From Pleionea mediterranea (GTDB taxonomy: Bacteria > Pseudomonadota > Gammaproteobacteria > Enterobacterales > Kangiellaceae), in assembly GCF_003148745.1 (NCBI RefSeq), contig NZ_QGGU01000001.1:11536-75535 (forward strand): DNA of 64,000 nt, in the 5' to 3' direction. How positions within the stretch are numbered: position 1 is the first letter of the stretch; each line of letters opens with the position of its first letter. Shown here piece after piece: positions 48,699 to 64,000 of this stretch. The translations under genes and the position numbers were made by a program. The notes under the pieces were generated by a model. That model was not told where the DNA came from. It saw only the letters and a list, made by a program, of their open reading frames with translations, and did not search any database.

Positions 48699-49559
48699 TT
48701 ACTGCTTAAACCTCATAATGCCTTCCTGAGCGGTGCTGGCAACCAGCCGGCCCTGTTGATCATAGACCTTACCTAATACAAATCCTCGTTGATGCGATGA
48801 TGATGGGCTATCTATAACGTACAGAAGCCAGTCATCAAAACGAAATTCACGGTGGAACCACATTGAGTGATCGATGGTGGCCATTTGCAGTTTGGGGGTT
48901 AAAAACGAAACGCCATGGGGCAACGCTGCGGTGGGTAAAAAGCCAAAGTCGGAAGCATAGGCGAGTATATATTTATGGATCCTTAAATCATCGGGCAGCT
49001 TGCCGTTGGTTTTCATCCAGATGTGGCGCTGCGGGGAGGCTTTTTCTGGTTTAAGTGGGTTGTGAAATTCAACCGGTCGCATTTCAATCGGTTTTTCACA
49101 AATAAAACGGGTGCGTAAATTTTCCGGAATATGTTCGGCGTATTGTCGGGCAATATCGAGTTCCGAAGGCAGATCATCGGGCAGAGTAACATTTGGCATG
49201 GACGCCTGATGATCGAAGCCATCGTTTGATATATGAAACGATGCCGTCATATAAAAGATGGTTTTGCCATTCTGGATGGCTTTTACCCGACGGGTAGAGA
49301 TGCTGCGGCCATCACGGATGGATTCTACGTCGTAAACAACCGGTCTTGAGGAATCGCCTGGTAATAAAAAGTAGCTGTGGAAAGAGTGAGAGACTCGATC
49401 GACATCAAGTGTTTGTTTGGCTGCTGATAGAGCCTGACCAATAACTTGACCTCCAAACAGTTGTGGAAAGCCAAGATCCTGACTTTGCCCACGGAACAAG
49501 TTGGTTTCTATGGGTTCCAGCTGCAACAATTCAACCAGTTCTTCTAGCACTTGGCTCAT
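48699..49559 (-). CDS. tesB: Acyl-CoA thioesterase II
   Basis: 286 aa. [44 protein letters not shown]...IDHSMWFHR is collinear with E. coli TesB. Confidence 0.9.
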
Positions 49560-49723
49560 AATAACTCTCTATTAATGTTTTGTAGTTACTATTGTAGGTG
49601 AATATTTTTTACAGGCAATAGCATTGACTCCGGAGTACGCACCGCAGAGAATGGCAATAGATTAAAGGTTTCAATTAATGCTGCTGTTGTTCAGGTAGAT
49701 CTTTACTAAAGAGAGATTGATTT

Positions 49724-50236
49724 ATGTTAAGTGATCGTTTTTTCATCCATGGAATAGTCAGGCTGTTTTGTTCAGTGATCATCGTTTGTTTGATCAGCAG
49801 TTGCGCCAACTTAACCTCAATGGAAAAAAGTATTGATACATTGACTAGCGAAGCCAATGAAGGTGATCTCAATGCCGCACATGCACTGTGCTTTCGTTTT
49901 AGTAATGGCGTAGGAGCAGAAATAGACGATGATGCTGCATTTAACTGGTGTCACCGAGCTTCGTCCACGCAAAATCCAAAGTCGATGACCTTACTGGCGG
50001 ATCTTTATTATCATGGTCGTGGCACCGAGCAAGATTACCATCAAGCAGCCAAGCTGTATTATTTTGCCGCCCAGCGTGGCATCGATAAAGCCATGCTAAT
50101 GCTTTATCATCACTATATTAATGGCTATGGCGTGGCCAAAGATGAAACGGAAGCGCGTTATTATTTAAATCGTGCCGCGCAGAGAAATTACGCGCCAGCA
50201 AAACAATTAAAACAACAATTACTATTACAACCTTAA
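49724..50236 (+). CDS. Sel1-repeat (TPR-like) protein, probable lipoprotein
   Basis: 170 aa. Hydrophobic N-terminus with Cys (LISSCANL). Sel1-like repeats around ...ADLYYHGRGTEQDYHQAAKLYYFAAQRG... and ...YINGYGVAKDETEARYYL... Confidence 0.6.
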   Translation: MLSDRFFIHGIVRLFCSVIIVCLISSCANLTSMEKSIDTLTSEANEGDLNAAHALCFRFSNGVGAEIDDDAAFNWCHRASSTQNPKSMTLLADLYYHGRGTEQDYHQAAKLYYFAAQRGIDKAMLMLYHHYINGYGVAKDETEARYYLNRAAQRNYAPAKQLKQQLLLQP

Positions 50237-50246
50237 GATATATTTT

Positions 50247-52157
50247 ATGACATTACGTTTTCTATTATGCAGTGTACTCTACTCGTTAAGTCTTATTGTT
50301 TCAGCAAGCACTTTTGATATTAACGACTGGTTTTCTAACGATGGTATATCGCCCGTGGCATTATCGCCAAGCGGTGAGCGCATATTATGGCTCGAACAAG
50401 GAATTGAGCAGGCGCTTTTACTACAGGCGGTTAAGGATGATAAGCACTTACAAATAGAGCTGCCCATTGAGACTCAATTTGTCGATGCCAGGTTTTCTGG
50501 AAGCAATCGACTTTTATTTATTGTAAAAGCCAGCCAATGGCATTATGTGTATGAATTCGATATTGAGAATAAAAAGCAGACGTTGGTTCTTAAAAAACAA
50601 TCCAGTGTTTCTTTTGTCAATGGTCAAAACAATAAAGGTGGCTACTGGTTACTGAGTCAACAGCAGCTTATATGGTTTGATTTTTTACGTCGTCAAATTA
50701 CTCAAGTAATGCAAGTGCCCGAAGGCATTGTTTCATTAACCGTCGATAGTAATGATAATCCCTGTCTTGCGATAAAAAATAACGGACAAGTTTTATTGCA
50801 TTCGCAGTTTTATAATGGAAATAACTCCAGCCATCAGTCGATAGAAAATTCCGAAGCATCGGAACAAGTTGATTCAGGTAAACAGTGGCACACTTTTGAT
50901 AAACTCTCATCGGTTACAGGTGTTAAAGTTGATGCCAGCTGTCAAAAACTATGGGCTTTATCCTCCAATAATCTGAATACCGAGAGTTTACTGGCGTATT
51001 CAGTCAGTAATGGTTTATCAATCTTATTCAGTAACAACTCTTTTGATTTATCTGGCTTTACTCTGACAGCGAACGGCGAAGCTGTTGATTCTGTTTCTTA
51101 TGACGGTCAAAAGCCAGAAGTCGTTACCTTTAGCCCCGCAATGGCGAAACTAAAAAGTATTCTTAATAAATATAATGATGATATTTATTGGAAAGTATTG
51201 GAAAGAAGTAATGATGACTCCGTTTTTCTGGTACATGCTGAGTCGCCGACTTTACCGCCACAAATTCTATGGGTGGCGATTAAATCGCGAACGTTGAAAG
51301 TTGTAAATCAATCCTTGGCTTACTATAAGGGCCATTCATGGCATCAAACCACTCCTTTTTCAATTAATCGTTTTCAAAGTGGGGAGCTTACCGGTTACCT
51401 GACAGTGCCAGCAAAACAGAAAACGGAAAATGATACAGAATCATTAACCATAAGCGATTCATCAGCCACAAAGTTTATCATTGTTAAACTGCATGGTGGT
51501 CCGTTTCAGGTTAGAGATAACTGGAGGTTTGATCCTGAGGCGCAGTGGTTTGCAGAACAGGGAATAGCAACCTTAACAGTAAACTATCGTGGCTCAGCAG
51601 GATTTGGAAAGCTGCATCAAGCAAAAGCATTTGGTCAGTTACGTGCAACACTGGAGCAAGATATTGATGACGCACTGGACTGGGCTCGTGAGCAGTACAG
51701 TGGAACGGAACATTCTATTTGTTTATACGGTTCAAGCTTTGGTGCTTTTGCCGTGTTATCGGAGTTGATTGAGAATCCTGATGATTATAGTTGTGGGATC
51801 ATGTTGTCAGGCGTTAGCAGCTTACCCGAGATTTATCGCGAGCTGGATACACAGCAAGATAAGGAATTATTTAAACGGCAGTTTGGTGATCCTGAAAATA
51901 TTGACTGGCACAATGAAAATAATTTATTAAAGCATATCGCCAGGTTATCCAAACCATTACTTGTGATTTACGGTAACCAAGATTCTGTTGTGTCACCGAT
52001 GCAGAGTGAACGATTAGTTGAAAAACTTAAGGCACACAGTAAGATCTTTGAGCAACAGGTTTTTCCTGAAGGTCAGCATCAACTTGACACTGTAAGCACG
52101 AGGCATCTTATTAACGATAAAATCAAATCGTTTTTAATGAAGTATCTACGAAAATAA
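50247..52157 (+). CDS. Secreted S9-family serine peptidase (prolyl oligopeptidase/dipeptidyl-peptidase-like) with N-terminal beta-propeller
   Basis: 636 aa. Signal peptide. A C-terminal alpha/beta hydrolase domain carries the GxSxG elbow LYGSSFGAF and downstream Asp/His. Confidence 0.7.
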   Translation: MTLRFLLCSVLYSLSLIVSASTFDINDWFSNDGISPVALSPSGERILWLEQGIEQALLLQAVKDDKHLQIELPIETQFVDARFSGSNRLLFIVKASQWHYVYEFDIENKKQTLVLKKQSSVSFVNGQNNKGGYWLLSQQQLIWFDFLRRQITQVMQVPEGIVSLTVDSNDNPCLAIKNNGQVLLHSQFYNGNNSSHQSIENSEASEQVDSGKQWHTFDKLSSVTGVKVDASCQKLWALSSNNLNTESLLAYSVSNGLSILFSNNSFDLSGFTLTANGEAVDSVSYDGQKPEVVTFSPAMAKLKSILNKYNDDIYWKVLERSNDDSVFLVHAESPTLPPQILWVAIKSRTLKVVNQSLAYYKGHSWHQTTPFSINRFQSGELTGYLTVPAKQKTENDTESLTISDSSATKFIIVKLHGGPFQVRDNWRFDPEAQWFAEQGIATLTVNYRGSAGFGKLHQAKAFGQLRATLEQDIDDALDWAREQYSGTEHSICLYGSSFGAFAVLSELIENPDDYSCGIMLSGVSSLPEIYRELDTQQDKELFKRQFGDPENIDWHNENNLLKHIARLSKPLLVIYGNQDSVVSPMQSERLVEKLKAHSKIFEQQVFPEGQHQLDTVSTRHLINDKIKSFLMKYLRK

Positions 52158-52225
52158 TTGAGGCCTTAGCGGTTAATAGCTAAGGCTACAAAATTTTCAA
52201 GGACTAGTTTTGTCAGTCAATAGAC

Positions 52226-52714
52226 TTAAATATCTTTTGCATTGACAAATAACAACACAATGCCGCTGGTTGCTGCAAAGACAAATGCATCTTTAAAAGA
52301 ATTAGCGCCTATTGTTGTTTGCCACATTTGGAATAATGCACCACCAATCACAACAAAGCCTCCAAACCAAACAACTAAGGCCATACCAGAACCAAGAATC
52401 GCAAAACCTTTAGATGAGTTAAAGACATCTGAACTATCATGCCGAACCTTCCAGAGATCCCATGCTCCTTTAAGTGAAAATGCGCCAACCAGAAACTCAC
52501 CAATAATAATACAAATAAATATTAAGGTTATTATTATTGGGTTGGTAATCGGGGGGAATATATGAGTGCTGTATACATTATGCTCCGCCATACCAGTAAC
52601 ATAGGCGATAGCTTCGAGACCTGTACTCCAGTTTGCAATATTACCGGCAACATAGAACCATCCCTGCAATCCAACGAAAGTGATTAATATGATTTTTAGT
52701 ATGCGAATTGCCAT
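52226..52714 (-). CDS. Small integral membrane protein (4 predicted TM helices), unknown function
   Basis: 162 aa, hydrophobic throughout. Confidence 0.5.
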   Translation of the reverse strand: MAIRILKIILITFVGLQGWFYVAGNIANWSTGLEAIAYVTGMAEHNVYSTHIFPPITNPIIITLIFICIIIGEFLVGAFSLKGAWDLWKVRHDSSDVFNSSKGFAILGSGMALVVWFGGFVVIGGALFQMWQTTIGANSFKDAFVFAATSGIVLLFVNAKDI

Positions 52715-52947
52715 GGGATACTCTCCTTATAATTAATTTAAATCCTCAAAAAGTATGATAATAAATATCAGATTTTACTTTGTATTGGTTACCATTCAAA
52801 TAATAGTCTAGTTTAGCTGACAATCAAGATGTAAGCCTGATATCGGTAAAGGTGATAGAGACAAAGGGTGATAGCCATCAAAAGTTGTACGTGGGAAAGG
52901 GCGATGAACTTATATAATATCTATCGAATAGGCAATAAAAATGATGA

Positions 52948-53769
52948 TCAGAAGTTTGTGGTCAACTGATACAGTTTTTCGCTGTGAGAAAGTGGACAGA
53001 CAAAAGCAAGTTTAACAGCCATAAGCATTAAATCATCATCAAGTATCGTACTATCATAAAGACGATCACCAACTATTGGAAATCCCGACTCTGCAAGATG
53101 TCGCCTTATTTGATGTTTACGTCCTGTTTCAATGGATACTTCAAGTAGTGATGTTTCATTAACCTTATCGATTGTCAGGGGGATCACATGACTAACACTC
53201 GGCTTGCCATCTATTGGCTGATTGATTGTTTGAGAGGCTTCAAACGGCCATACACCTTCGACCATAGCGTGGTAGGTTTTGCTAATAGCGCGTGTTGCAA
53301 ATAGGTGCGATAATTTTGCGGCAGCGGTTTTAGAATGAGCCACTAAAATAATGCCGCTGGCTGCTCTATCGAGTCGATGGACCACAAAACTATTTCGTTG
53401 TGGTGTTAAATGCTGTTCTGCCCATCGTGTAATGGTGCAATGATCACCCCATTTTGAGCCTTGAGACAATAGCCCTGACGGTTTATTCCAAACACTGTAG
53501 TCGCTTTCGTCGGCAATTAGCTCTGGTACAGAGGGCTCGGCTGAAAGTACCTTTTCATCATAATATATGTGTAAGGTTTGACCGCATTTTAATGTTTTTT
53601 TAGCACGACGAATGCGTTGTGTCTTTTTGCCAGCCGTAAGCCAGACGCAACCCTTATTCATAGCTTCTTTTAGTTTTTGTTTTGATAGTTCAGTATGTGA
53701 GGCAAGGCACTCGATCGCCAGTTGATTGTCAGTAGCAATCTTGATGTGTTGCTCGAACGACTTTAACAT
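52948..53769 (-). CDS. RluA-family pseudouridine synthase
   Basis: 273 aa. HRLDRAASGIILVAHS is the catalytic HRLD...SG motif. Its start overlaps the stop of the upstream GGDEF gene (TAATG). Confidence 0.75.
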   Translation of the reverse strand: MLKSFEQHIKIATDNQLAIECLASHTELSKQKLKEAMNKGCVWLTAGKKTQRIRRAKKTLKCGQTLHIYYDEKVLSAEPSVPELIADESDYSVWNKPSGLLSQGSKWGDHCTITRWAEQHLTPQRNSFVVHRLDRAASGIILVAHSKTAAAKLSHLFATRAISKTYHAMVEGVWPFEASQTINQPIDGKPSVSHVIPLTIDKVNETSLLEVSIETGRKHQIRRHLAESGFPIVGDRLYDSTILDDDLMLMAVKLAFVCPLSHSEKLYQLTTNF

Positions 53770-55508
53770 TATGAGGTTTGATGCTCATCATTGGATGACG
53801 AGTAAATCATACAACGATTTCTACCTGCATGTTTTGCGTCATAAAGCGCTTCATCGGAATGTTTCATTAGCGTATCAAAGTTATATCCGGAAATACGGCT
53901 TACGGTAATACCGAAGCTTGCGGTTATAGTGATTGCTTTATCGTTTACTTTTATATCCAGCTCTGAAATTTCTGTTCTTATTTTATCGGCAATTTCGGAT
54001 GCTTTTTCTAACTCACATCCTGGAAGCAGTATTGCAAATTCCTCACCGCCAATACGGCCAAACAAGTCTACTTTTCTGGTGTGCTTTAAAACCGGTGTTT
54101 TTAACGACTGAAGAACTTGATCACCAATGGGATGACCATGGGTGTCATTAATAAATTTGAATTTATCCAGATCAAATAAGATAAAGCTAACCACTTGTCC
54201 TGTTGATTGATTGTGTAGCAACGCTGACTCGGATTCTTTTGTAAAGTGACGTCGATTGGATATACCGGTTAATGAGTCAAACTCTGCCAGTTGCTTCAGC
54301 TTTATGTGAGTTTGTTTTGTTCGATAAAGCCAAATAAAGATAAAGCTAATCACAAGAGTTAATAGTAGTATCACTAATGATTTATTGGTAGCTTCTTTTT
54401 TAGACAGTGAGCGTTGCAAGGTTAATGACTCATTTTCTTTATTAAGAATTTCGATCTCATTGTTTTTTTCATTAACTTTGTGTTTAATAGTTTGAACAGC
54501 CATACTCTTTAGCTTTGCTTGGTTTAGATTTTTTTTGTCGTAACTATGGTACTTTTCAAAATATTGAATGGCTTTTTTATAGTTATTATTTATAATCGAG
54601 ACTTCATAAAGTGTTTTATAGGCTGCAACAAAAGGTTTATAAGGAATGTTGTCTTCACTCATGGATATGATTTTTTCGGCAAAACTTTTGGCACTCACCA
54701 AGTCATTTTTTTGAAGATAGATTTGGGCTAATAATTGGTAGTGTTCGGATATTAAATAGTTGTATTGAGTGTTTTCTGTACTTGCCAAATGCTTCTTAAG
54801 TAGTTTTTCAGCACCATCAAGGTTCCCTTTGTTAATATTATTTCTTGCGACAAAAGTAATTAAAAAGCTACTGTAGACAGGCTCATTGGCTTTGCTGCAG
54901 TTTTGCAAGACATTCTCTGCCCTTTTCAGTGAGCCGGTGAGATTAAATCGAGACTCAATGATAATGCTATTAGCGGCACAAATTGTTCTTTCGTTAGCAT
55001 TAAACAACAAAGCTTTTTTGGCATTAATTTGACCAAGATCATATTCACCTAACTGGTTATAGAAAATAGCAATGGCCAGATAAGCTCTGCTTGAGACATT
55101 GCTTTGAGAGCTTGTTTCAAGGTGCTTGTTTAAGAACTCGATTTCAGATAAACCTTCCGTCCAATCTCTAGTTATAGCGTAAGTATTCAGTAAAAGAATG
55201 CTGGATTTTGTTTTAAGGTCAGAAGTAGATGCAGATTGTTTTACAAGCTTAACTTTTTGAATGGATGCTTTTGAATTTCCGAGAAGTAAATCCTCCATAC
55301 CTCTTAAAAAACTTAAATAAATTTGCTCTTCTTTAGATAGTTTTTCAGACATTCTCTCTATTTGCTTAAGATCGTGAGAGAATTTTTTTAGATCAGATGT
55401 TCGTAGCTTTTCGGTTTTTTCAAGCTGCTTCCAAAAACTGCTTTTCTCTGTTTCTGAAAAGACATATAGGGATGTTAATAAAATGGAAAAGCACAAAAGG
55501 AACTTCAT
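53769..55508 (-). CDS. Diguanylate cyclase: periplasmic TPR-like helical sensor, TM, GGDEF (paralog A)
   Basis: 579 aa. Signal peptide, helical-repeat region, coiled coil, TM (LVILLLTLVISFIFIWLY). The GGDEF domain has RIGGEEFAILLPG. Confidence 0.85.
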   Translation of the reverse strand: MKFLLCFSILLTSLYVFSETEKSSFWKQLEKTEKLRTSDLKKFSHDLKQIERMSEKLSKEEQIYLSFLRGMEDLLLGNSKASIQKVKLVKQSASTSDLKTKSSILLLNTYAITRDWTEGLSEIEFLNKHLETSSQSNVSSRAYLAIAIFYNQLGEYDLGQINAKKALLFNANERTICAANSIIIESRFNLTGSLKRAENVLQNCSKANEPVYSSFLITFVARNNINKGNLDGAEKLLKKHLASTENTQYNYLISEHYQLLAQIYLQKNDLVSAKSFAEKIISMSEDNIPYKPFVAAYKTLYEVSIINNNYKKAIQYFEKYHSYDKKNLNQAKLKSMAVQTIKHKVNEKNNEIEILNKENESLTLQRSLSKKEATNKSLVILLLTLVISFIFIWLYRTKQTHIKLKQLAEFDSLTGISNRRHFTKESESALLHNQSTGQVVSFILFDLDKFKFINDTHGHPIGDQVLQSLKTPVLKHTRKVDLFGRIGGEEFAILLPGCELEKASEIADKIRTEISELDIKVNDKAITITASFGITVSRISGYNFDTLMKHSDEALYDAKHAGRNRCMIYSSSNDEHQTS

Positions 55509-55509
55509 A

Positions 55510-57273
55510 TTATTTTAAGCTCTCTATTTCGTCATTACTTTCTGTAGGAGGCATAGAGTATACGGTCGTTTTATTTCTACCACTGTGCTTCGATTCATAA
55601 AGCGCTAAGTCAGAGTGCTTCATTAGTGTATCAAAATTGTAGCCTGATATACGGCTGACAGTAACACCAAAGCTGGCTGTTACTGTGAACTCAAACCCTG
55701 ACTCTTTAGTATTCAGTTGCATTAATCCTTTACGAATACCCTCTGCAATTTCTCTTGCTTGTTCTAGCTCACAGCCGGGTAATAATATAGCAAACTCTTC
55801 ACCTCCCATACGGCCAAACAAATCAATCTTTCTTGTAGCATCTAAGACAGGTTTGGGTATGTTTTTTAATACCCAGTCACCTGTAGGGTGGCCGTAAGAG
55901 TCATTTATAGATTTAAATTTATCCAGGTCGAATAAGATTATGCTGACGGCTTGGCCGCTTGCTTTACAATGTATGAGACTCATTTTACATTTTTTTGCAA
56001 AGTGGCGTCGGTTATGAATTCCTGTTAATGAATCAAATTCTGCCAGGTGGCGAAGTTTTATTTGCGTCTTTTTAGTTCTATATGCCCAAAGAGATGTGAA
56101 AATAATTATTAGTATTAAAATTATAATCATTAATGATTTATTTTGAGCTTCTTCCTTTGCTAGCGATTGCTCTAAATTTAATGCTTTATTTTCTTTGTTA
56201 AGTAATTCAATCGTACTGTTTTTCTCAACTATTCTATGATTTGCTAACTGAACTGACATATTTCGAGCTTTTATATCATCGAGATAGAGCTTTTCATATA
56301 AGCTATACTTTTCAAGGAATAATAATGATTTCTGATAATTGCTCTTGATCTTTTCTATTTTATAAAGAACATTGAGAGCCGAAACTAAAGGCTTTAATGG
56401 TGTCTTAGAGTCAGTGTTATCAACAACTTTTGAAGCAAAAGAAGTTGAGCTTGAGTAATCTTTGAGTTGGAAAAAAGCTTCTGCAAGGAGTCTGTAATAT
56501 TCTAAAATAAGTATTTTATAATTGGTTTTTTCTACACTGTTTAAACTGCGGGTTAAAATATCCACTACTTCACCATACTTATTTTGCTCCAGCAAATAAA
56601 TTGCCAAATAGGTATTGTTTAAATTTTCCCATATATGCTCATTTAAAGAGTGACATAAGTTAATTGTATCTTTTAGTGTATTAGTACGTTGTAAAGTATT
56701 AAGATAAATAGATGACTCATTAACCAGTGTCCTTGAAATGCATATATTGCGGTTGCTGTTACTGCTTTTCAATACCCGTGATGCATACTCTTGACCGAGA
56801 TTAAACTCTTCAACTTGATTGTAAAAGATAGCGGCGGTAATAATCCCTCTTTCAAATAAATCCGGATCATTATTGACCTGAGAACTAATACTAAATAATT
56901 CTTCAATGAGTATAAGTCCTTTTGTCCATTCTCTTTGTATTGCGTATATATTGATTAAAACAATAAGTGATTTGTTTTTTAATACAGGAACGCTTGATTT
57001 TTCACGTATAAACTCTAATGTATTTATGGCAGGTAATAGCTGCCCAGATTTCATCTGTTTCAGAGATTTTAAAAACAAAAGGAAATATAGTTCTTCTTGA
57101 TTAAGCTTATCTGCTTTTTCTTCGAATCTGGCTATTTTAAAATTGAATTCAGTTGGATCTGAGCTTCTTAGAGCTTCTATTCTTTCGAGTTCAGCCCATG
57201 CTTCTGAGCCATCATACGCATTACAAATACGTATGATGGCTAATATGACCAAAAGTAATAGCTTTACTTTCAT
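55510..57273 (-). CDS. Diguanylate cyclase: periplasmic TPR-like helical sensor, TM, GGDEF (paralog B)
   Basis: 587 aa with the same architecture. The GGDEF region is highly similar to paralog A (LAEFDSLTGI.NRRHF...ILFDLDKFK.IND..GHP.GD...GR.GGEEFAILLPGCELE...SGYNFDTLMKHSD.ALY). The stop lies 1 nt before paralog A's start. Confidence 0.85.
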   Translation of the reverse strand: MKVKLLLLVILAIIRICNAYDGSEAWAELERIEALRSSDPTEFNFKIARFEEKADKLNQEELYFLLFLKSLKQMKSGQLLPAINTLEFIREKSSVPVLKNKSLIVLINIYAIQREWTKGLILIEELFSISSQVNNDPDLFERGIITAAIFYNQVEEFNLGQEYASRVLKSSNSNRNICISRTLVNESSIYLNTLQRTNTLKDTINLCHSLNEHIWENLNNTYLAIYLLEQNKYGEVVDILTRSLNSVEKTNYKILILEYYRLLAEAFFQLKDYSSSTSFASKVVDNTDSKTPLKPLVSALNVLYKIEKIKSNYQKSLLFLEKYSLYEKLYLDDIKARNMSVQLANHRIVEKNSTIELLNKENKALNLEQSLAKEEAQNKSLMIIILILIIIFTSLWAYRTKKTQIKLRHLAEFDSLTGIHNRRHFAKKCKMSLIHCKASGQAVSIILFDLDKFKSINDSYGHPTGDWVLKNIPKPVLDATRKIDLFGRMGGEEFAILLPGCELEQAREIAEGIRKGLMQLNTKESGFEFTVTASFGVTVSRISGYNFDTLMKHSDLALYESKHSGRNKTTVYSMPPTESNDEIESLK

Positions 57274-57276
57274 AGC

Positions 57277-57525
57277 TTAAGCTGTTTTTTCAGTCTCTTT
57301 TGGCTCTTCTTGAGGCTCTTCTTGAGGCTCTTCATTTGGTTCATCATCTTCAGCAGGCGCTAAACCACATATGATATTTTGAGGAGCATTCAAAAGGGAT
57401 ATTAATGTATCTTCATCTTTCTCCCTAATTGCCGAGCAAACTTGTTCCTCAAGACTTTCTAGTCCATCAAGGTAAACACTACCTTTTTCACCGGACATTT
57501 CAAGATGCTTTATTATTGTACTCAT
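57277..57525 (-). CDS. Small highly acidic protein with C-terminal EEPQ-repeat tail
   Basis: 82 aa with a strong AGGAGA-N5-ATG RBS. MSTIIKHLEMSGEKGSVYLDGLESLEEQVCSAIREKDEDTLISLLNAPQNIICGLAPAEDDEPNEEPQEEPQEEPKETEKTA. The tail is encoded by a 15-nt tandem DNA repeat (CTCTTCTTGAGGCTC). Confidence 0.6.
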   Translation of the reverse strand: MSTIIKHLEMSGEKGSVYLDGLESLEEQVCSAIREKDEDTLISLLNAPQNIICGLAPAEDDEPNEEPQEEPQEEPKETEKTA

Positions 57526-57539
57526 CGCTTTCTCCTAGT

Positions 57540-58343
57540 TTATATTGGTTGTAGTAAATCAATATTTTTAAGTTGGTTGTGTATTAGATTATTTTTAGTT
57601 AACTCTCTAGCGGGTGGAATGATTAATGTTGATTTCATTGAGATTGTTTGCTCAACTAACTCGGCTAAAGGAATGGTTTTCTTTATTATTTCGTTAAGTT
57701 CATTTGTGGGTGCTTCATAAATAATAATATGATGTTGTGATGAATAATGCTCTAAAAGCAATGTCTTTAGAATTTCCAAGTACCGTTTATCTGACTTGGT
57801 AATAGTATGAGAGTTATCTCCTGCAAAGGCGAGTTGCCACAATATTAAGTATGCAGAAGTATCAACGATGCGTTTATAAAACATAAACTGACTGGCTTCG
57901 TAATGCTGGCAACCATATTTCCCAGGGTCAATGCCCAGGTCGGCGTATAAGCAGTCTTCGGCTGATATGCCCGGAAGCATTTTTGCCTCATAACCTTCAT
58001 CACGAGCTTTTTTGATGGCTTTATGTGAAGGATTTACGAACACACCCGGATGTCCATAAAATGCACCAACCACTTTTTTGCCGTTACGGACTTCATTGAG
58101 AAGTGCATCAGCCATTTCTTGATAGGAAATCTTTCTTGATTTACCTGTGGCGTAATACTGTTGCAGTGAAACCACATTAGGGTGGATATCTTGTAGCCAG
58201 AGTTCGAACAAACCATCGGATGACGCTGCGAATACAACATCTGCCGATTGTATAGTGGTTCTTACAATAGGACTAATGTGAGCGCCGATAGAAATACCCA
58301 CGCCAACACAGGTTAAACTTCCTTTTAATTTTTCTTCTGACAT
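57540..58343 (-). CDS. Divergent tetrapyrrole-methylase-fold (TP_methylase/RsmI-like) protein, unknown substrate
   Basis: 267 aa. CVGVGISIGAHISP lies where the GxGPGDP/IGNLADIT loop sits. ADVVFAA. GKKVVGAFYGHPGVF corresponds to G..V.L.GGDPFVFG. LPGISA. The C-terminal IIIYEAPTNEL corresponds to the RsmI LIFYESTHRL motif. Confidence 0.55.
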   Translation of the reverse strand: MSEEKLKGSLTCVGVGISIGAHISPIVRTTIQSADVVFAASSDGLFELWLQDIHPNVVSLQQYYATGKSRKISYQEMADALLNEVRNGKKVVGAFYGHPGVFVNPSHKAIKKARDEGYEAKMLPGISAEDCLYADLGIDPGKYGCQHYEASQFMFYKRIVDTSAYLILWQLAFAGDNSHTITKSDKRYLEILKTLLLEHYSSQHHIIIYEAPTNELNEIIKKTIPLAELVEQTISMKSTLIIPPARELTKNNLIHNQLKNIDLLQPI

Positions 58344-58419
58344 AGTTAAGGCTGAGGTTGCACAATATGCCTATAAGATACTGATGTGACCGTATATTGC
58401 AATAAAAATGTGAGCTAAT

Positions 58420-58932
58420 TCAAAGCGTTTGTTTTGAAATAGTATAAGAGAAGTGAGGTGCGTTCTGACTTTTGTCTGTTTTTTGAACTCTACTAAATCC
58501 TATTCGTTCAACCAAACGCAAGATCGGTTTATTCATGGTTTGGAAGCTCGCTGAAACATGTTGGATGTTAAGCGTGTCGAGTAAATATTTCAGAGTGGCC
58601 ATGGTGGCTTCATAAGGAATGTTTTTTCCCTGAGCGTGTCGTGTCAGGATTATTCCAATGTCAGCAGTAGATTGCGGATAATCAATATTATCAATTCCCA
58701 TTACTCCCAAAGGAATGGATGACTGCTTTTGCTCTATTACGAACAGCTTGTATTTCGGCTTGGGCTTGTTGATGGCTTTAAGTGTGTTTTCAAAATAGCC
58801 TTCTACTTTTGAGTTTGCATTATCTATTTCTATGAATCGCATTAACTCATCGTCAGAATAGAGTGCGCAATAAAAGTCTTTATCATAATTGGTCAGGTTA
58901 CGATAAGTTAGTCTTTCGGACTCGAATAGCAT
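58420..58932 (-). CDS. GNAT family N-acetyltransferase (RimJ/RimL-like)
   Basis: 170 aa. MLFESERLTYRNLTNYDKDFYCALYSDDELMRFI... is the typical RimL-type N-terminus, followed by the GNAT core. Confidence 0.7.
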   Translation of the reverse strand: MLFESERLTYRNLTNYDKDFYCALYSDDELMRFIEIDNANSKVEGYFENTLKAINKPKPKYKLFVIEQKQSSIPLGVMGIDNIDYPQSTADIGIILTRHAQGKNIPYEATMATLKYLLDTLNIQHVSASFQTMNKPILRLVERIGFSRVQKTDKSQNAPHFSYTISKQTL

Positions 58933-59176
58933 ACTCTCTCCCGAGTATTCGATTTAAAATTTATTCGCTAAACGAATAGCGATTTTTGGAAAGGCTATTG
59001 AGAAAAGCCATTTTCCTCAGCGTTTCTCTATCTTGCTTAACAGGCGGGCCTCGCGTACTATTATGCCCCTTTTTTAGCGGCCTGTTTGGGCGCGCATCGT
59101 ATCGCCAGAACAGGGTTCTGATGTTTGATATTTGACCGCTTTCTGGCTGTAAAATCAAGGCGTTATGGGAAAAGTT

Positions 59177-60952
59177 ATGCGAAGTCATTATTGTGCTGAT
59201 CTGGTTGCTCTGGAAGATGGGGCTGAAATATCCATTGCAGGATGGGTTCATCGTCGCCGGGATCTGGGCGGTTTGATTTTTTTACAGATACGGGATCGCA
59301 GCGGCATCGTTCAGGTGACAGTTGAGCCGGATCAGGGTGATGTGTTTGCCGCCGCCGACGAGTTACGTTCGGAATTTGTGGTGCAGGTCAGTGGAAAAAT
59401 TCGTCAACGTCCCGAAAGCATGGTCAACAAAGACATGGCAACCGGTGCCATCGAAGTGGTTGCCGATGCCATTACTTGCTTGAATAAGTCGCAAACACCG
59501 GCGATTTTAGTGGATGGCCATGAAGACGTATCTGAAGAAACCCGTTTAAAGTATCGTTATCTGGATTTGCGTCGTCCGGAAATGACCAATAAGTTTTTAT
59601 TCCGCACTCGCGTAACGCAATTGTTACGAAAGTATCTGGATGAGCAAGGTTTCCTTGATATGGAAACACCCATACTGACCAAAGCAACGCCAGAAGGCGC
59701 GCGCGATTACCTGGTGCCGAGTCGCACTCACAAGCAATCCTTCTTTGCTTTGCCTCAATCACCACAACTGTTTAAACAATTACTGATGATGAGCGGTTTT
59801 GATCGCTACTATCAGGTGGTGCGTTGTTTCCGCGACGAAGATTTACGCGCCGATCGCCAGCCAGAATTTACCCAGCTCGATATTGAAACTTCGTTTATGG
59901 ACGAAGAGGGTATTATGGGGATGATGGAGAATATGATCCGCTCGGTGTTTAAAGAATTATTAAATGTTGAGCTGGCTAATCCTTTCCCTCGTATGCCTTA
60001 TTCCGAAGCGATGGAAAAATACGGCTCAGATAAACCCGATTTACGCGTCGATATGCCCATTCACACGGTTGATGATCTGGTTAAAGATGTTGATTTTAAA
60101 GTATTCAGCGGACCGGCAAACGATGAAAAAGGGCGCGTTGGTGTACTGAATTTGAAAGGTGGTGCAGAAAAAGTCAGTCGTAAGAAGATTGATGAGTTCA
60201 CCAAGTTTGTGGGCATTTATGGTGCGAAAGGATTGGCGTTTATTAAAGTTAACGACCGTGCTGCAGGACTGGAAGGCTTGCAGTCGCCAATCGTTAAGTT
60301 TTTATCAACCGACGTTGCCGAATCCATTTTACAACGAACGGACGCCGAGTCAGGCGATATTCTGTTTTTTGGTTCAGACAGTCAGTCGGTCGTGGCCGAT
60401 GCACTGGGTGCGTTGCGACTTAAACTGGCCGGCGATTTTGAGTTATTTAGTAACGAATGGAAGCCTCTGTGGGTTGTGGATTTTCCAATGTTTGAAGACG
60501 ATGATGGACAACTGCAAGCGTTGCACCATCCGTTTACGTCGCCCAAAGAACTTGATCCTGCTGCGTTAAAAGGTAACCCAACCGGCACGCTTTCACGGGC
60601 TTACGATATGGTATTAAACGGCTGTGAAGTGGGTGGTGGTTCCATTCGTATCCATGATACGGATTTGCAGCAAACCATTTTTGATATTCTTGGCATTGGT
60701 GAGCAGGAAGCGCGCGAAAAATTTGGCTTTCTGTTAGATGCCCTTAAATTTGGTTGCCCGCCACATGGCGGTATTGCCTTTGGACTGGACCGACTGGTAA
60801 TGTTGATGGTGGGTGCGGACTCTATTAGAGACGTTATTGCATTCCCTAAAACAACCACTGCCGGTTGCCCATTGACCGAAGCGCCGGCAAAAGTTTCACA
60901 GGCGCAACTGGACGAGTTAGGTATTGCGATAAAACAAAAGCCAAGTGCTTAA
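59177..60952 (+). CDS. aspS: Aspartate--tRNA ligase
   Basis: [47 protein letters not shown]... is collinear with E. coli AspRS. Class II motifs are present. The ORF-track start at 59165 adds 4 residues. Confidence 0.95.
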
Positions 60953-63131: not shown

Positions 63132-64000
63132 ATGATCGAAGAAGACAGAATAATTGCCGGCTCCACTCAAACCATTGAAGAAGATCGCTTTGATCGGGCC
63201 ATTCGACCAACACAGTTGAAAGATTATGTGGGCCAGCCGCAGGTTAAAGAGCAGATGGAGATTTTTCTTCAGGCGTCGAAAAACCGTAACGATGCGCTCG
63301 ATCATGTGCTGATTTTTGGGCCTCCCGGACTTGGTAAGACCACCTTGGCGAATATCATTGCCAATGAAATGGGGGTCGCGATTAAATATACCTCCGGTCC
63401 GGTGCTTGAGAAAGCCGGTGATCTGGCGGCACTACTCACCAATCTTGAAGAAAACGATGTGTTGTTTATTGATGAAATACATCGGCTTAGTCCCATGGTG
63501 GAAGAGATTTTATACCCCGCCATGGAAGACTACCAGATTGATATTATGATTGGAGAAGGCCCAGCGGCACGATCCATCAAGCTCGACCTCCCTCCGTTTA
63601 CTCTGGTGGGTGCAACCACCCGTGCAGGGTTGTTGACCTCGCCACTGCGCGATCGTTTTGGCATCGTGCAGCGACTCGAATTTTATAATATTGATGAGCT
63701 GAGCAGTATCGTTATGCGCAGCGCGTCGATTTTGGGCCTAAAAGCCGAAGCAGAAGGTGCCAGAGAAGTGGCCTGTCGCTCACGCGGCACCCCAAGGATC
63801 GCCAATCGGCTTTTGCGTCGAGTGCGTGATTACGCCGAAGTAAAAGCCGATGGAGTTATAAGCAATGATGTGGCCGCAAAAGCACTCAACATGCTGGAAG
63901 TGGATGAAAAGGGCTTCGATACCATGGATCGCAAACTGCTGCTGGCGATTATCGATAAGTTTTCCGGCGGTCCGGTAGGGCTTGATACCTTGGCTGCGGC
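63132..64000 (+). CDS. ruvB: Holliday junction helicase RuvB (3' end beyond window)
   Basis: [42 protein letters not shown]... Walker [10 protein letters not shown]. The frame is open to the window end and the gene follows ruvA. Confidence 0.93.

Follow-up and report, generated by a model that had tools for sequence, protein, structure and literature searches.

A probable sam-type split borosin cluster in Pleionea mediterranea carries a hypervariable allelic cassette

Introduction

What might unite an acetyltransferase, a methyltransferase, an acidic protein of 82 amino acids (aa), two membrane-bound diguanylate cyclases and a pseudouridine synthase in a single tightly packed block of genes? 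The question is raised by positions 52948 to 58932 of a 64,000-nucleotide (nt) stretch of Pleionea mediterranea DNA (contig NZ_QGGU01000001.1; hereafter, the window), where six genes follow one another on the minus strand next to aspS. A sequence-only reading had taken the methyltransferase for a divergent tetrapyrrole (TP) methylase acting on RNA or on a translation factor, whose activity, together with RimL-type acetylation and pseudouridylation, would be tied to cyclic di-GMP (c-di-GMP). Our analysis leads to a different answer: the block is, with high probability, a type IV ('split') borosin cluster, encoding a peptide made on the ribosome and modified after translation (RiPP) of the Shewanella amazonensis sam type, and it lies between aspS and an RluA-family gene.

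Results

A borosin methyltransferase and its predicted precursor

The methyltransferase gene (57540..58343, minus strand) encodes a 267-aa protein that matches the borosin methyltransferase SonM of Shewanella oneidensis (PDB 7ltc) over residues 8–254 with E=1.8e-67, the fungal enzymes OphMA, dbOphMA and MroMA with E-values of about 1e-45 to 1e-51, and SamM1 of S. amazonensis at 50% identity (E=1e-100; SamM1 sequence from the supplement of bioRxiv 10.1101/2024.01.09.574750). Mutagenesis of SonM marked Y58, R67, Y71, Y93, F99, E146, W166 and Q167 as important (PMC8429565), and all eight have identical counterparts here (Y64, R70, Y74, Y96, F102, E149, W169 and Q170). The signature motifs described for borosin methyltransferases, YGHP and DCL[FY]AD (bioRxiv 10.1101/2021.12.24.474128), are likewise present, as YGHP starting at Y96 and as EDCLYADLG, and the active-site and lock residues together with these motifs are invariant across 25 relatives. 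The protein also contains a GISIGAH loop, which had been regarded as a non-canonical loop for binding S-adenosylmethionine (SAM) and turns out to be the norm in the borosin methyltransferase family. Among NCBIfam models, the RsmI model was unmatched and only weak hits to YabN and precorrin methylases were obtained, far under their cut-offs. The similarity to borosin enzymes and the missing RsmI match together rule out an RsmI- or Dph5-like macromolecule methylase, or an unplaced TP-methylase, and the concern that the protein might simply be the ordinary RsmI orthologue of this organism does not apply. Judged by its sequence, the protein is a SonM/SamM-type borosin peptide backbone α-N-methyltransferase, with the predicted catalytic residue set complete.

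The 82-aa protein encoded directly behind it (57277..57525, minus strand), with an AGGAG Shine-Dalgarno sequence 8 nt 5' of its open reading frame (ORF), contains an EEPQEEPQEEP repeat, and 22 of its 82 residues are Asp or Glu. Searched as a single sequence, it returned one irrelevant weak hit from the PDB, with no detectable similarity to the borosin precursor SonA, and only itself from a database of 5.8 billion proteins. Small ORFs occupy the same position in every related contig and align with the 82-aa protein, and its homology became visible only after these syntenic ORFs had been gathered and a family profile built from them: an eight-ORF seed recovered 32 members, all unannotated. The top seven PDB hits of the 32-member profile are all SonA chains (E=0.04), colinear from Met1 across the borosin-binding domain, and the family profile aligns with SamA1, the precursor of the sam cluster, with an hhalign probability of 98.8% (E=1e-16). 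BLASTP aligns the 82-aa protein itself with SamA1 without gaps (E=6e-6), placing C53 opposite C50, L55 opposite F52, and A56/P57 opposite F53/P54; across the 32 family members, conservation of C53, P57 and A58 is 90% or higher.

From these alignments, the protein divides into a leader (the borosin-binding domain, residues 1 to about 47), a core motif defined by homology with SamA1 (NIICGLAPA, residues 50–58; 57352..57378, minus strand) and a polyanionic tail of 26 aa (P57–A82), of which 12 residues are acidic and 2 basic; the junction reads IICGLA/PAEDDEPNEE.... An AlphaFold2 model (predicted local distance difference test, pLDDT, 66) shows helices at residues 3–14, 19–24, 27–34 and 38–46, followed by disorder. 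All 12 hits of this model in a Foldseek search of the PDB are OphA, LigA or SonA which, with every E-value above 1, is only suggestive. In SamA1, Phe52 is methylated, and SamP (shewasin A, an A1 aspartic peptidase) cuts between Phe53 and Pro54 only after methylation, freeing an unmethylated anionic peptide, PAEDEPEKE... (bioRxiv 10.1101/2024.01.09.574750). By homology with SamA1, we predict N-methylation at L55 and cleavage between A56 and P57. The 82-aa protein is thus predicted to be the SamA1-type precursor of the adjoining methyltransferase, which bears out the earlier suggestion that it is a candidate substrate of the methylase.

Two variations on the precursor theme were seen in other loci. 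In Povalibacter and Steroidobacter (L074:11461-11892 and L080:11417-11848), the usual leader and acidic core are followed by a long lysine-rich tail (…KKKGGKKKGGGKKKAPKKPAPKK…), so that a polyanionic and a polycationic segment stand within a single peptide. Two further precursors (L044:6527-6859 and L078:11387-11764) carry two Cys-containing core motifs per ORF (e.g. …NVCCAIYAP…NVCCLIYAPP…) and may give two peptides.

A conserved methyltransferase–precursor–cyclase module

We surveyed 80 genome loci (Lysobacterales, Alteromonadales, Steroidobacterales and others) whose methyltransferases are 50–56% identical to that of the window, with denominators counting the loci that had enough DNA for the question at hand. 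Together with nine further loci (L001–L009), these form a set of 89, in 80 of which a profile-positive precursor ORF lies near the methyltransferase. A same-strand cyclase with a homologous periplasmic domain follows within 5 kb downstream of the methyltransferase in 65 of 66 loci, and two such cyclases do so in 14 of 66. The pair of methyltransferase and precursor therefore does travel with TPR-GGDEF genes, which the sequence-only reading had proposed to check by gene-neighbourhood analysis. In 40 of 70 loci, a GNAT homologue is encoded no more than 1.6 kb from the methyltransferase, and 17 of 71 have an A1 aspartic peptidase upstream of the methyltransferase. In seven related contigs, the full order GNAT–methyltransferase–precursor–GGDEF(–GGDEF)–RluA is kept, with the A1 peptidase also present in three. 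Because this gene order recurs in seven independent contigs and a homologue of the small protein stands beside the methyltransferase in 80 of 89 loci, the ORFs of the block are, by comparative sequence criteria, judged real rather than chance. In eight loci (L033, L042, L047, L056, L062, L066, L079 and L089), a single methyltransferase is accompanied by at least two precursor genes, with a separate TPR-GGDEF gene directly behind every one of them; the precursor–cyclase pair thus acts as a duplicating unit.

In the window, both cyclases belong to this module. Cyclase 1 (GGDEF-1; 55510..57273, minus strand), identified by PF00990, motifs and synteny, has a signal or first transmembrane (TM) segment, a periplasmic TPR-like sensor at residues about 24–373 and a TM helix at 374–401. 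Its tandem paralogue, cyclase 2 (GGDEF-2; 53769..55508, minus strand), has a signal-like N-terminus and a single TM helix at 372–398. The periplasmic domains of both give only weak TPR hits. GGEEF stands at residue 490 of cyclase 1 and 487 of cyclase 2, and an RxxD inhibitory site (I-site) lies five residues upstream of it in each (RKID at 481 and RKVD at 478, respectively); by these sequence criteria, both are predicted to be active diguanylate cyclases. Full-length identity between the two is 45%, and they are the paralogous sensor cyclases already recognized in the sequence-only reading. No precursor gene of its own precedes cyclase 2, which points to a tandem duplication without a second precursor, and two cyclase copies are also found in the related loci L001 and L002. 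The borosin-linked GGDEF protein of Shewanella electrodiphila shares 33% identity with cyclase 1 over the full length of the latter. GGDEF proteins occur in 56% and PF13302 proteins in about 26% of split borosin clusters, and fusions of TPR/TM/GGDEF proteins with methyltransferases exist, the GGDEF link being treated only descriptively there (bioRxiv 10.1101/2021.12.24.474128). The link between a methylase and c-di-GMP synthesis, thought to be new, had accordingly been published before (PMC10549244; bioRxiv 10.1101/2021.12.24.474128), and our survey reproduces it in 65 of 66 loci.

An allelic cassette within the cluster

Having placed the cluster, we compared its sequence with that of a TARA Oceans scaffold (L001), which is near-conspecific with the window and forms with it the only close Pleionea genome pair at hand. 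Genes on either side are almost identical at the protein level (aspS 99%, RluA 98%, DUF2165 100%, S9 peptidase 96%). By blastn, window positions 64000–57805 match the scaffold at 96.8% and positions 56211–50700 at 92.9%, with the gap between them unmatched, and both breakpoints recur in the comparison with the more distant L002. The interval (56211..57805, minus strand), which has no blastn match to either relative, is a hypervariable allelic cassette of 1.6 kb that spans methyltransferase residues from about 180 to 267, the entire precursor gene, and sensor residues 1 to about 354 of cyclase 1.

The edges of the cassette are equally apparent at the protein level. Between the window and L001, identity falls from 93% over methyltransferase residues 1–179 to 42% over residues 180–267, 32% over the precursor and 35% over cyclase-1 residues 1–354, and then rises to 80% over cyclase-1 residues 355–587 and to 86–99% in cyclase 2. 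Nucleotide identity computed in 150-nt bins follows the same course: 0.95–1.00 in the distant flanks, 0.86–0.93 in the GNAT gene, 0.89–0.96 in the 5' part of the methyltransferase gene, 0.41–0.60 within the cassette (57850–56201), 0.69 rising to 0.90 in the 3' part of cyclase 1, 0.80–0.89 in the 5' part of cyclase 2, and 0.93–0.99 beyond it. The exchanged part of the methyltransferase corresponds to the top clamp (172–182) and the domain-B loop (208–216) of SonM, the latter being wrapped by the SonA leader (PMC8429565); the catalytic residues all lie in the conserved part.

The cassettes of L001 and L002 are of a common type, with 64, 63 and 74% identity over the three variable segments. The cassette of the window is equidistant from all alleles compared (29–48% aa identity, with no relative of the precursor above 48%), and no donor was found among them. 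A search of 1.84 billion representatives with its sensor domain gave 330 matching proteins in total, none above 39% identity and nearly all of about 580–600 aa with the domain at positions about 25–360. In a Pleionea-like metagenome contig (L090, Ga0209475_10004958), aspS matches that of the window at 88% identity and the methyltransferase at just 50%, and an A1 peptidase gene is also present; the contig may hold a third and strongly divergent allele of the cluster in this chromosomal position.

Mosaic clusters in Shewanella

Comparable mosaics were found in Shewanella. Between S. sairae (L019) and S. pneumatophori (L021), the Asp peptidase (86%), GNAT (97%) and methyltransferase (99%) are well conserved; the precursor is 95% identical over residues 1–20 and 34% from residue 21 to the end, and the cyclase 43, 98 and 89% over residues 1–120, 121–370 and 371 to the end. 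The corresponding values for S. sairae and Shewanella sp. 1CM18E (L034) are 88, 38 and 98% for the three enzymes, 90 and 45% for the two precursor segments, and 38, 72 and 100% for the three cyclase segments; for S. pneumatophori and sp. 1CM18E, they are 91, 38 and 98%, then 90 and 44%, then 30, 73 and 90%. S. electrodiphila (L008) and Shewanella sp. TC10 (L013) form a fourth such pair (94, 39 and 84%; 80 and 46%; 45, 56 and 94%). Sliding identity along the Shewanella clusters shows two separate valleys, one in the GNAT gene and one covering the 3' part of the precursor and the 5' part of the cyclase, around a methyltransferase at 0.91–0.97. What varies recurrently is the precursor together with the beginning of the cyclase sensor; added to this unit is the precursor-binding part of the methyltransferase (in Pleionea) or the GNAT (in Shewanella).

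The Shewanella GNAT is hypervariable in its own right, with 38–39% aa identity beside an Asp peptidase at 88–94% and a methyltransferase at 84–98% (about 9320-9900 in L019, L021 and L034; 7376-7885 in L008 versus 9370-9900 in L013).

Operon layout and neighbouring genes

All six ORFs of the block lie on the minus strand at the coordinates first assigned to them, and their Pfam and NCBIfam domains are PF13302, PF00590, PF00990 (twice) and PF00849. Both the 267-aa and the 82-aa protein have identical NCBI entries from P. mediterranea, a member of the gammaproteobacterial family Pleioneaceae. The first gene (58420..58932, minus strand) encodes a GNAT acetyltransferase of the RimJ/RimL type (PF13302, Pfam E=2e-20), in agreement with its earlier assignment. 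Sam-type borosin clusters have such a GNAT as an accessory enzyme, with the peptide as its presumed substrate. In the order GNAT to RluA, the gene junctions taken from the sequence itself measure 76, 14, 3, 1 and −1 nt, the last being a TAATG shared by the stop codon of cyclase 2 and the start codon of the RluA-family gene; the operon-like packing described earlier was thus reproduced in full. From this spacing alone, we infer co-transcription of the six genes. A promoter and terminator scan of positions 52100–59300 gave counts no higher than in shuffled sequence, and an Rfam search of positions 49000–60000 at E-values up to 1 found neither a riboswitch nor another RNA. The AT-richness previously attributed to the block was confirmed (gene GC content 0.33–0.43, versus 0.47 for aspS/yebC and 0.430 for the window), and the low GC content reaches beyond it into the genes for DUF2165 and the S9 peptidase. 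A 96-aa ORF (58961-59251, minus strand) in the intergenic region from aspS to the GNAT gene overlaps the aspS start on the opposite strand and is probably spurious.

The last gene of the block (52948..53769, minus strand) encodes a 273-aa RluA-family pseudouridine synthase (PF00849) with the HRLD catalytic motif at residue 131. The protein matches the structures of RluA, RluD and RluC and stays under all equivalog cut-offs (best TruC, 80.8 bits versus 328; TIGR00005, 130 versus 192.7). It lies downstream of the cyclase in all Pleionea-like loci, and the linkage was seen only there: an RluA-family gene occurs within 10 kb in 5 of 52 methyltransferase survey loci and is adjacent in none. For the reverse test, an alignment of orthologues of this RluA-family protein was searched against metagenome contigs, yielding more than 569 relatives, of which the best 80 (50–60% identity) were examined. 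Only one of the 36 orthologue loci with at least 5 kb upstream contains a borosin methyltransferase or cyclase, and that locus is Pleionea-like; aspS is not beside the RluA-family gene in other lineages. Since 35 of 36 orthologue loci from metagenomes are free of a borosin cluster, the RluA-family gene was rejected as part of the borosin system, and the RNA-modification angle of the sequence-only reading falls away with it, such orthologues being common in marine metagenomes. The gene is a widespread ordinary neighbour, whose translational coupling to the cluster is confined to this lineage and which is probably co-transcribed with it. In Shewanella intestini, an RluA-family orthologue (L020:15017-15856, 45% identity) lies 5 kb downstream of a borosin cluster with two genes between, a proximity that is probably a coincidence or old synteny.

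Next to the block (49724-52157, plus strand, and 52226-52714, minus strand), a secreted S9 (prolyl-oligopeptidase-family) peptidase gene and a Sel1-like gene, convergent to the cluster, are found in every Pleionea-like locus. Between them and the RluA-family gene lies a gene for a DUF2165 membrane protein, present only in the window, L001 and L002. An S9 protease is used for maturation in fungal borosins; outside this lineage, the S9 gene found here is not conserved with the methyltransferase. As a candidate maturation protease it was rejected, being syntenic only in Pleionea-like loci, absent from all 47 RluA loci and represented by just three weak hits across the 80 loci of the methyltransferase survey.

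Discussion

A probable split borosin cluster and its closest relatives

Read as a borosin cluster, the block would work as follows. The N-terminal helical bundle of the precursor (the borosin-binding domain) would dock on domain B of the SAM-dependent methyltransferase, which would methylate a backbone amide in the hydrophobic core, at L55 if the homology with SamA1 Phe52 holds. A protease, which in relatives is an A1 aspartic peptidase and is not encoded in the window, would then cut between A56 and P57 and release an unmethylated, polyanionic peptide of 26 aa, PAEDDEPNEEPQEEPQEEPKETEKTA, which the GNAT may acetylate. Both TPR-like/TM/GGEEF cyclases belong to the conserved module and would tie the cluster to c-di-GMP signalling. 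The RluA-family gene is outside this module; the cluster shows the usual GNAT and TPR-GGDEF partners without an in-cluster peptidase.

The closest known counterpart is the sam cluster of S. amazonensis, which comprises SamP/shewasin A, a PF13302 GNAT, SamM1, SamA1 and a GGDEF protein; the cloned stretch reached from its peptidase gene through its GGDEF gene (bioRxiv 10.1101/2024.01.09.574750). The two share the methyltransferase family (50% identity), the GNAT family, the TPR-like/TM/GGDEF partner and the gene order, as well as the precursor family with its Cys-x-hydrophobic-hydrophobic/Pro-Ala-Glu-Asp junction and acidic tail. They differ in that Pleionea lacks an A1 aspartic peptidase both within the cluster and elsewhere in the window, has a predicted Ala rather than Phe at the P1 position, has a leader about 9 residues shorter than those of the Shewanella members, and has tandem cyclases and an RluA-family gene joined to the operon; the Pleionea cluster is known here by sequence alone.

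The son cluster of S. oneidensis MR-1 (SonM SO1478, SonA SO1479, GGDEF SO1480 and cation efflux SO1481), whose product is shewanellamide A (PMC8429565, PMC10549244), is conserved across Shewanella, and its native role is stated as unknown (PMC10549244). It likewise pairs a split methyltransferase with a precursor that has a helical borosin-binding leader and with an adjoining GGDEF protein, and its crystal-defined catalytic residues and domain-B/leader interface are conserved in Pleionea. In contrast to SonA, whose core is C-terminal and whose methylated residues are kept in the product, homology with SamA1 predicts that methylation in Pleionea would mark the leader side, leaving the released tail unmethylated. 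Pleionea also differs in having a GNAT and no efflux pump, and a single-sequence search with its 82-aa protein leaves SonA undetected. The fungal type I borosins (OphMA/omphalotin, dbOphMA and MroMA) share the homologous methyltransferase domain and the same proposed chemistry, whereas their enzyme is fused to its substrate and acts autocatalytically, with maturation by a prolyl oligopeptidase and macrocyclic products.

Several observations weigh against identifying the block as a borosin cluster of this type. A tblastn search of the 64-kb window with three cluster peptidases found no A1 peptidase, which in the Pleionea-like loci L006, L007 and L090 lies between aspS and the GNAT gene; a SamP-type peptidase can be encoded distally (bioRxiv 10.1101/2024.01.09.574750). 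The predicted P1 residue is Ala, and an Ala-Ala variant of SamA1 was cut only weakly by SamP (bioRxiv 10.1101/2024.01.09.574750), so that maturation in this organism may take another course or not take place. The similarity of the leader to SonA is weak when taken by itself (E=0.04), and the precursor was modelled with low confidence (pLDDT 66). Kept in every Pleionea-like locus, the 1-nt overlap that joins RluA to cyclase 2 could still carry function. Finally, what we propose for this organism is a prediction from its genome sequence.

What the cassette may mean

The RNA-modification reading, in which a divergent TP-methylase acts on RNA or a translation factor alongside RimL acetylation and pseudouridylation under a tie to c-di-GMP, draws on the adjacency of the genes, on that 1-nt overlap and on the presence of the RluA gene after the cluster in all Pleionea-like loci. 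A borosin methyltransferase with intact peptide-contacting catalytic residues, no RsmI match, RluA orthologues unlinked in 35 of 36 loci and an RluA gene within 10 kb in only 5 of 52 methyltransferase loci make it very improbable. If the block is instead a borosin cluster, it could be a conventional secondary-metabolite cluster, whose end product, the anionic peptide, has antimicrobial or other bioactivity, whose cyclases regulate or accompany biosynthesis, and whose mosaic reflects neutral recombination or horizontal replacement. The borosin literature treats such loci as natural-product biosynthetic gene clusters and notes that anionic peptides can be antimicrobial, and the contiguous Pleionea cassette fits a single recombination tract. 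Such a cluster is harder to square with the near-universal linkage to one cyclase family (65 of 66 loci) and the reported methyltransferase–GGDEF fusions, with precursor–cyclase units duplicated in eight loci, with the non-contiguous variable patches of Shewanella, and with a cluster that has neither an exporter nor an immunity gene; we regard it as quite possible, at somewhat less than even odds.

The mosaic suggests co-adaptation among the peptide, the sensor and the enzyme surface, with the peptide as a possible ligand of the cyclase. Extending the borosin reading in this direction, the processed peptide or the modified precursor could act as a ligand that differs between strains and is recognized by the periplasmic TPR-like domain of the neighbouring cyclase, so that peptide production controls c-di-GMP, with enzyme-binding surface, peptide and receptor diversifying jointly as specificity groups (pherotypes), as in agr or comQXP, two systems with parallel cassette layouts. 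The sharp-edged exchange between near-conspecifics coincides exactly with domain B of the methyltransferase, the precursor and the sensor of cyclase 1; its methyltransferase part holds the top clamp and the loop wrapped by the SonA leader (SonM 172–182 and 208–216), and shoulders of divergence decay on either side of it. Independent Shewanella mosaics combine methyltransferases at 98–99% with precursors at 34–45% past helix 1 and first 120 sensor residues at 30–43%, the GNAT valley being separate, and eight loci repeat the precursor-then-cyclase unit behind one methyltransferase. No relative of the window allele exceeds 39% for the sensor (1.84 billion representatives) or 48% for the precursor. 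The hypervariable region of agr is laid out in the same way: between conserved flanks, it runs from the 3' end of agrB, which encodes the modifying enzyme, across the peptide precursor gene agrD into the 5' sensor-coding end of the receptor gene agrC (PMC3673130).

This likeness to AgrB/AgrD/AgrC is an analogy of organization, not homology: the protein families of agr and comQXP, both from Firmicutes, are unrelated to those here, the receptor there is a histidine kinase rather than a diguanylate cyclase, and Pleionea is Gram-negative with a periplasmic sensor, for which signalling and export are only proposed. Moreover, the variable genes are contiguous in Pleionea, where the sensor could hitch-hike between the nearest conserved recombining stretches; the cluster is without an exporter; Shewanella peptides were detected in cell extracts only, not in supernatants; sensor domains and acidic tails evolve fast anyway; and there is a single close genome pair for Pleionea. 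Weighing both sides, we consider a pherotype-like role possible, at odds a little lower than those of the conventional cluster.

Our proposal for the borosin clusters as a family is just as tentative. The methyltransferase–precursor–TPR/GGDEF triad may be a circuit from peptide signal to c-di-GMP with pherotype-like specificity groups, not an antibiotic-style pathway, in which cassettes exchange the docking surface of the enzyme, the peptide and the sensor jointly. In such a circuit, the cyclase directly behind the precursor would sense the processed peptide or the modified precursor, and the window and its TARA relative would carry two specificity alleles. The triad is present in about 1,500–2,700 reported bacterial borosin pathways. 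A literature search on quorum sensing, pherotypes or hypervariability returned no top-ranked paper that speaks of borosins.

The first gain from this analysis is correct annotation of a block whose proteins are annotated as 'hypothetical' or 'SAM-dependent methyltransferase'. Beyond this, the literature gives neither a native role for bacterial borosin clusters nor a reason for the TPR-GGDEF gene that so frequently accompanies them, and the cassette polymorphism, with two natural alleles in almost identical backgrounds and further mosaics in Shewanella, makes the role of the borosin–GGDEF pairing experimentally approachable. If the proposed circuit is true, it would mean peptide-based cell signalling in Gram-negative bacteria that feeds directly into c-di-GMP.

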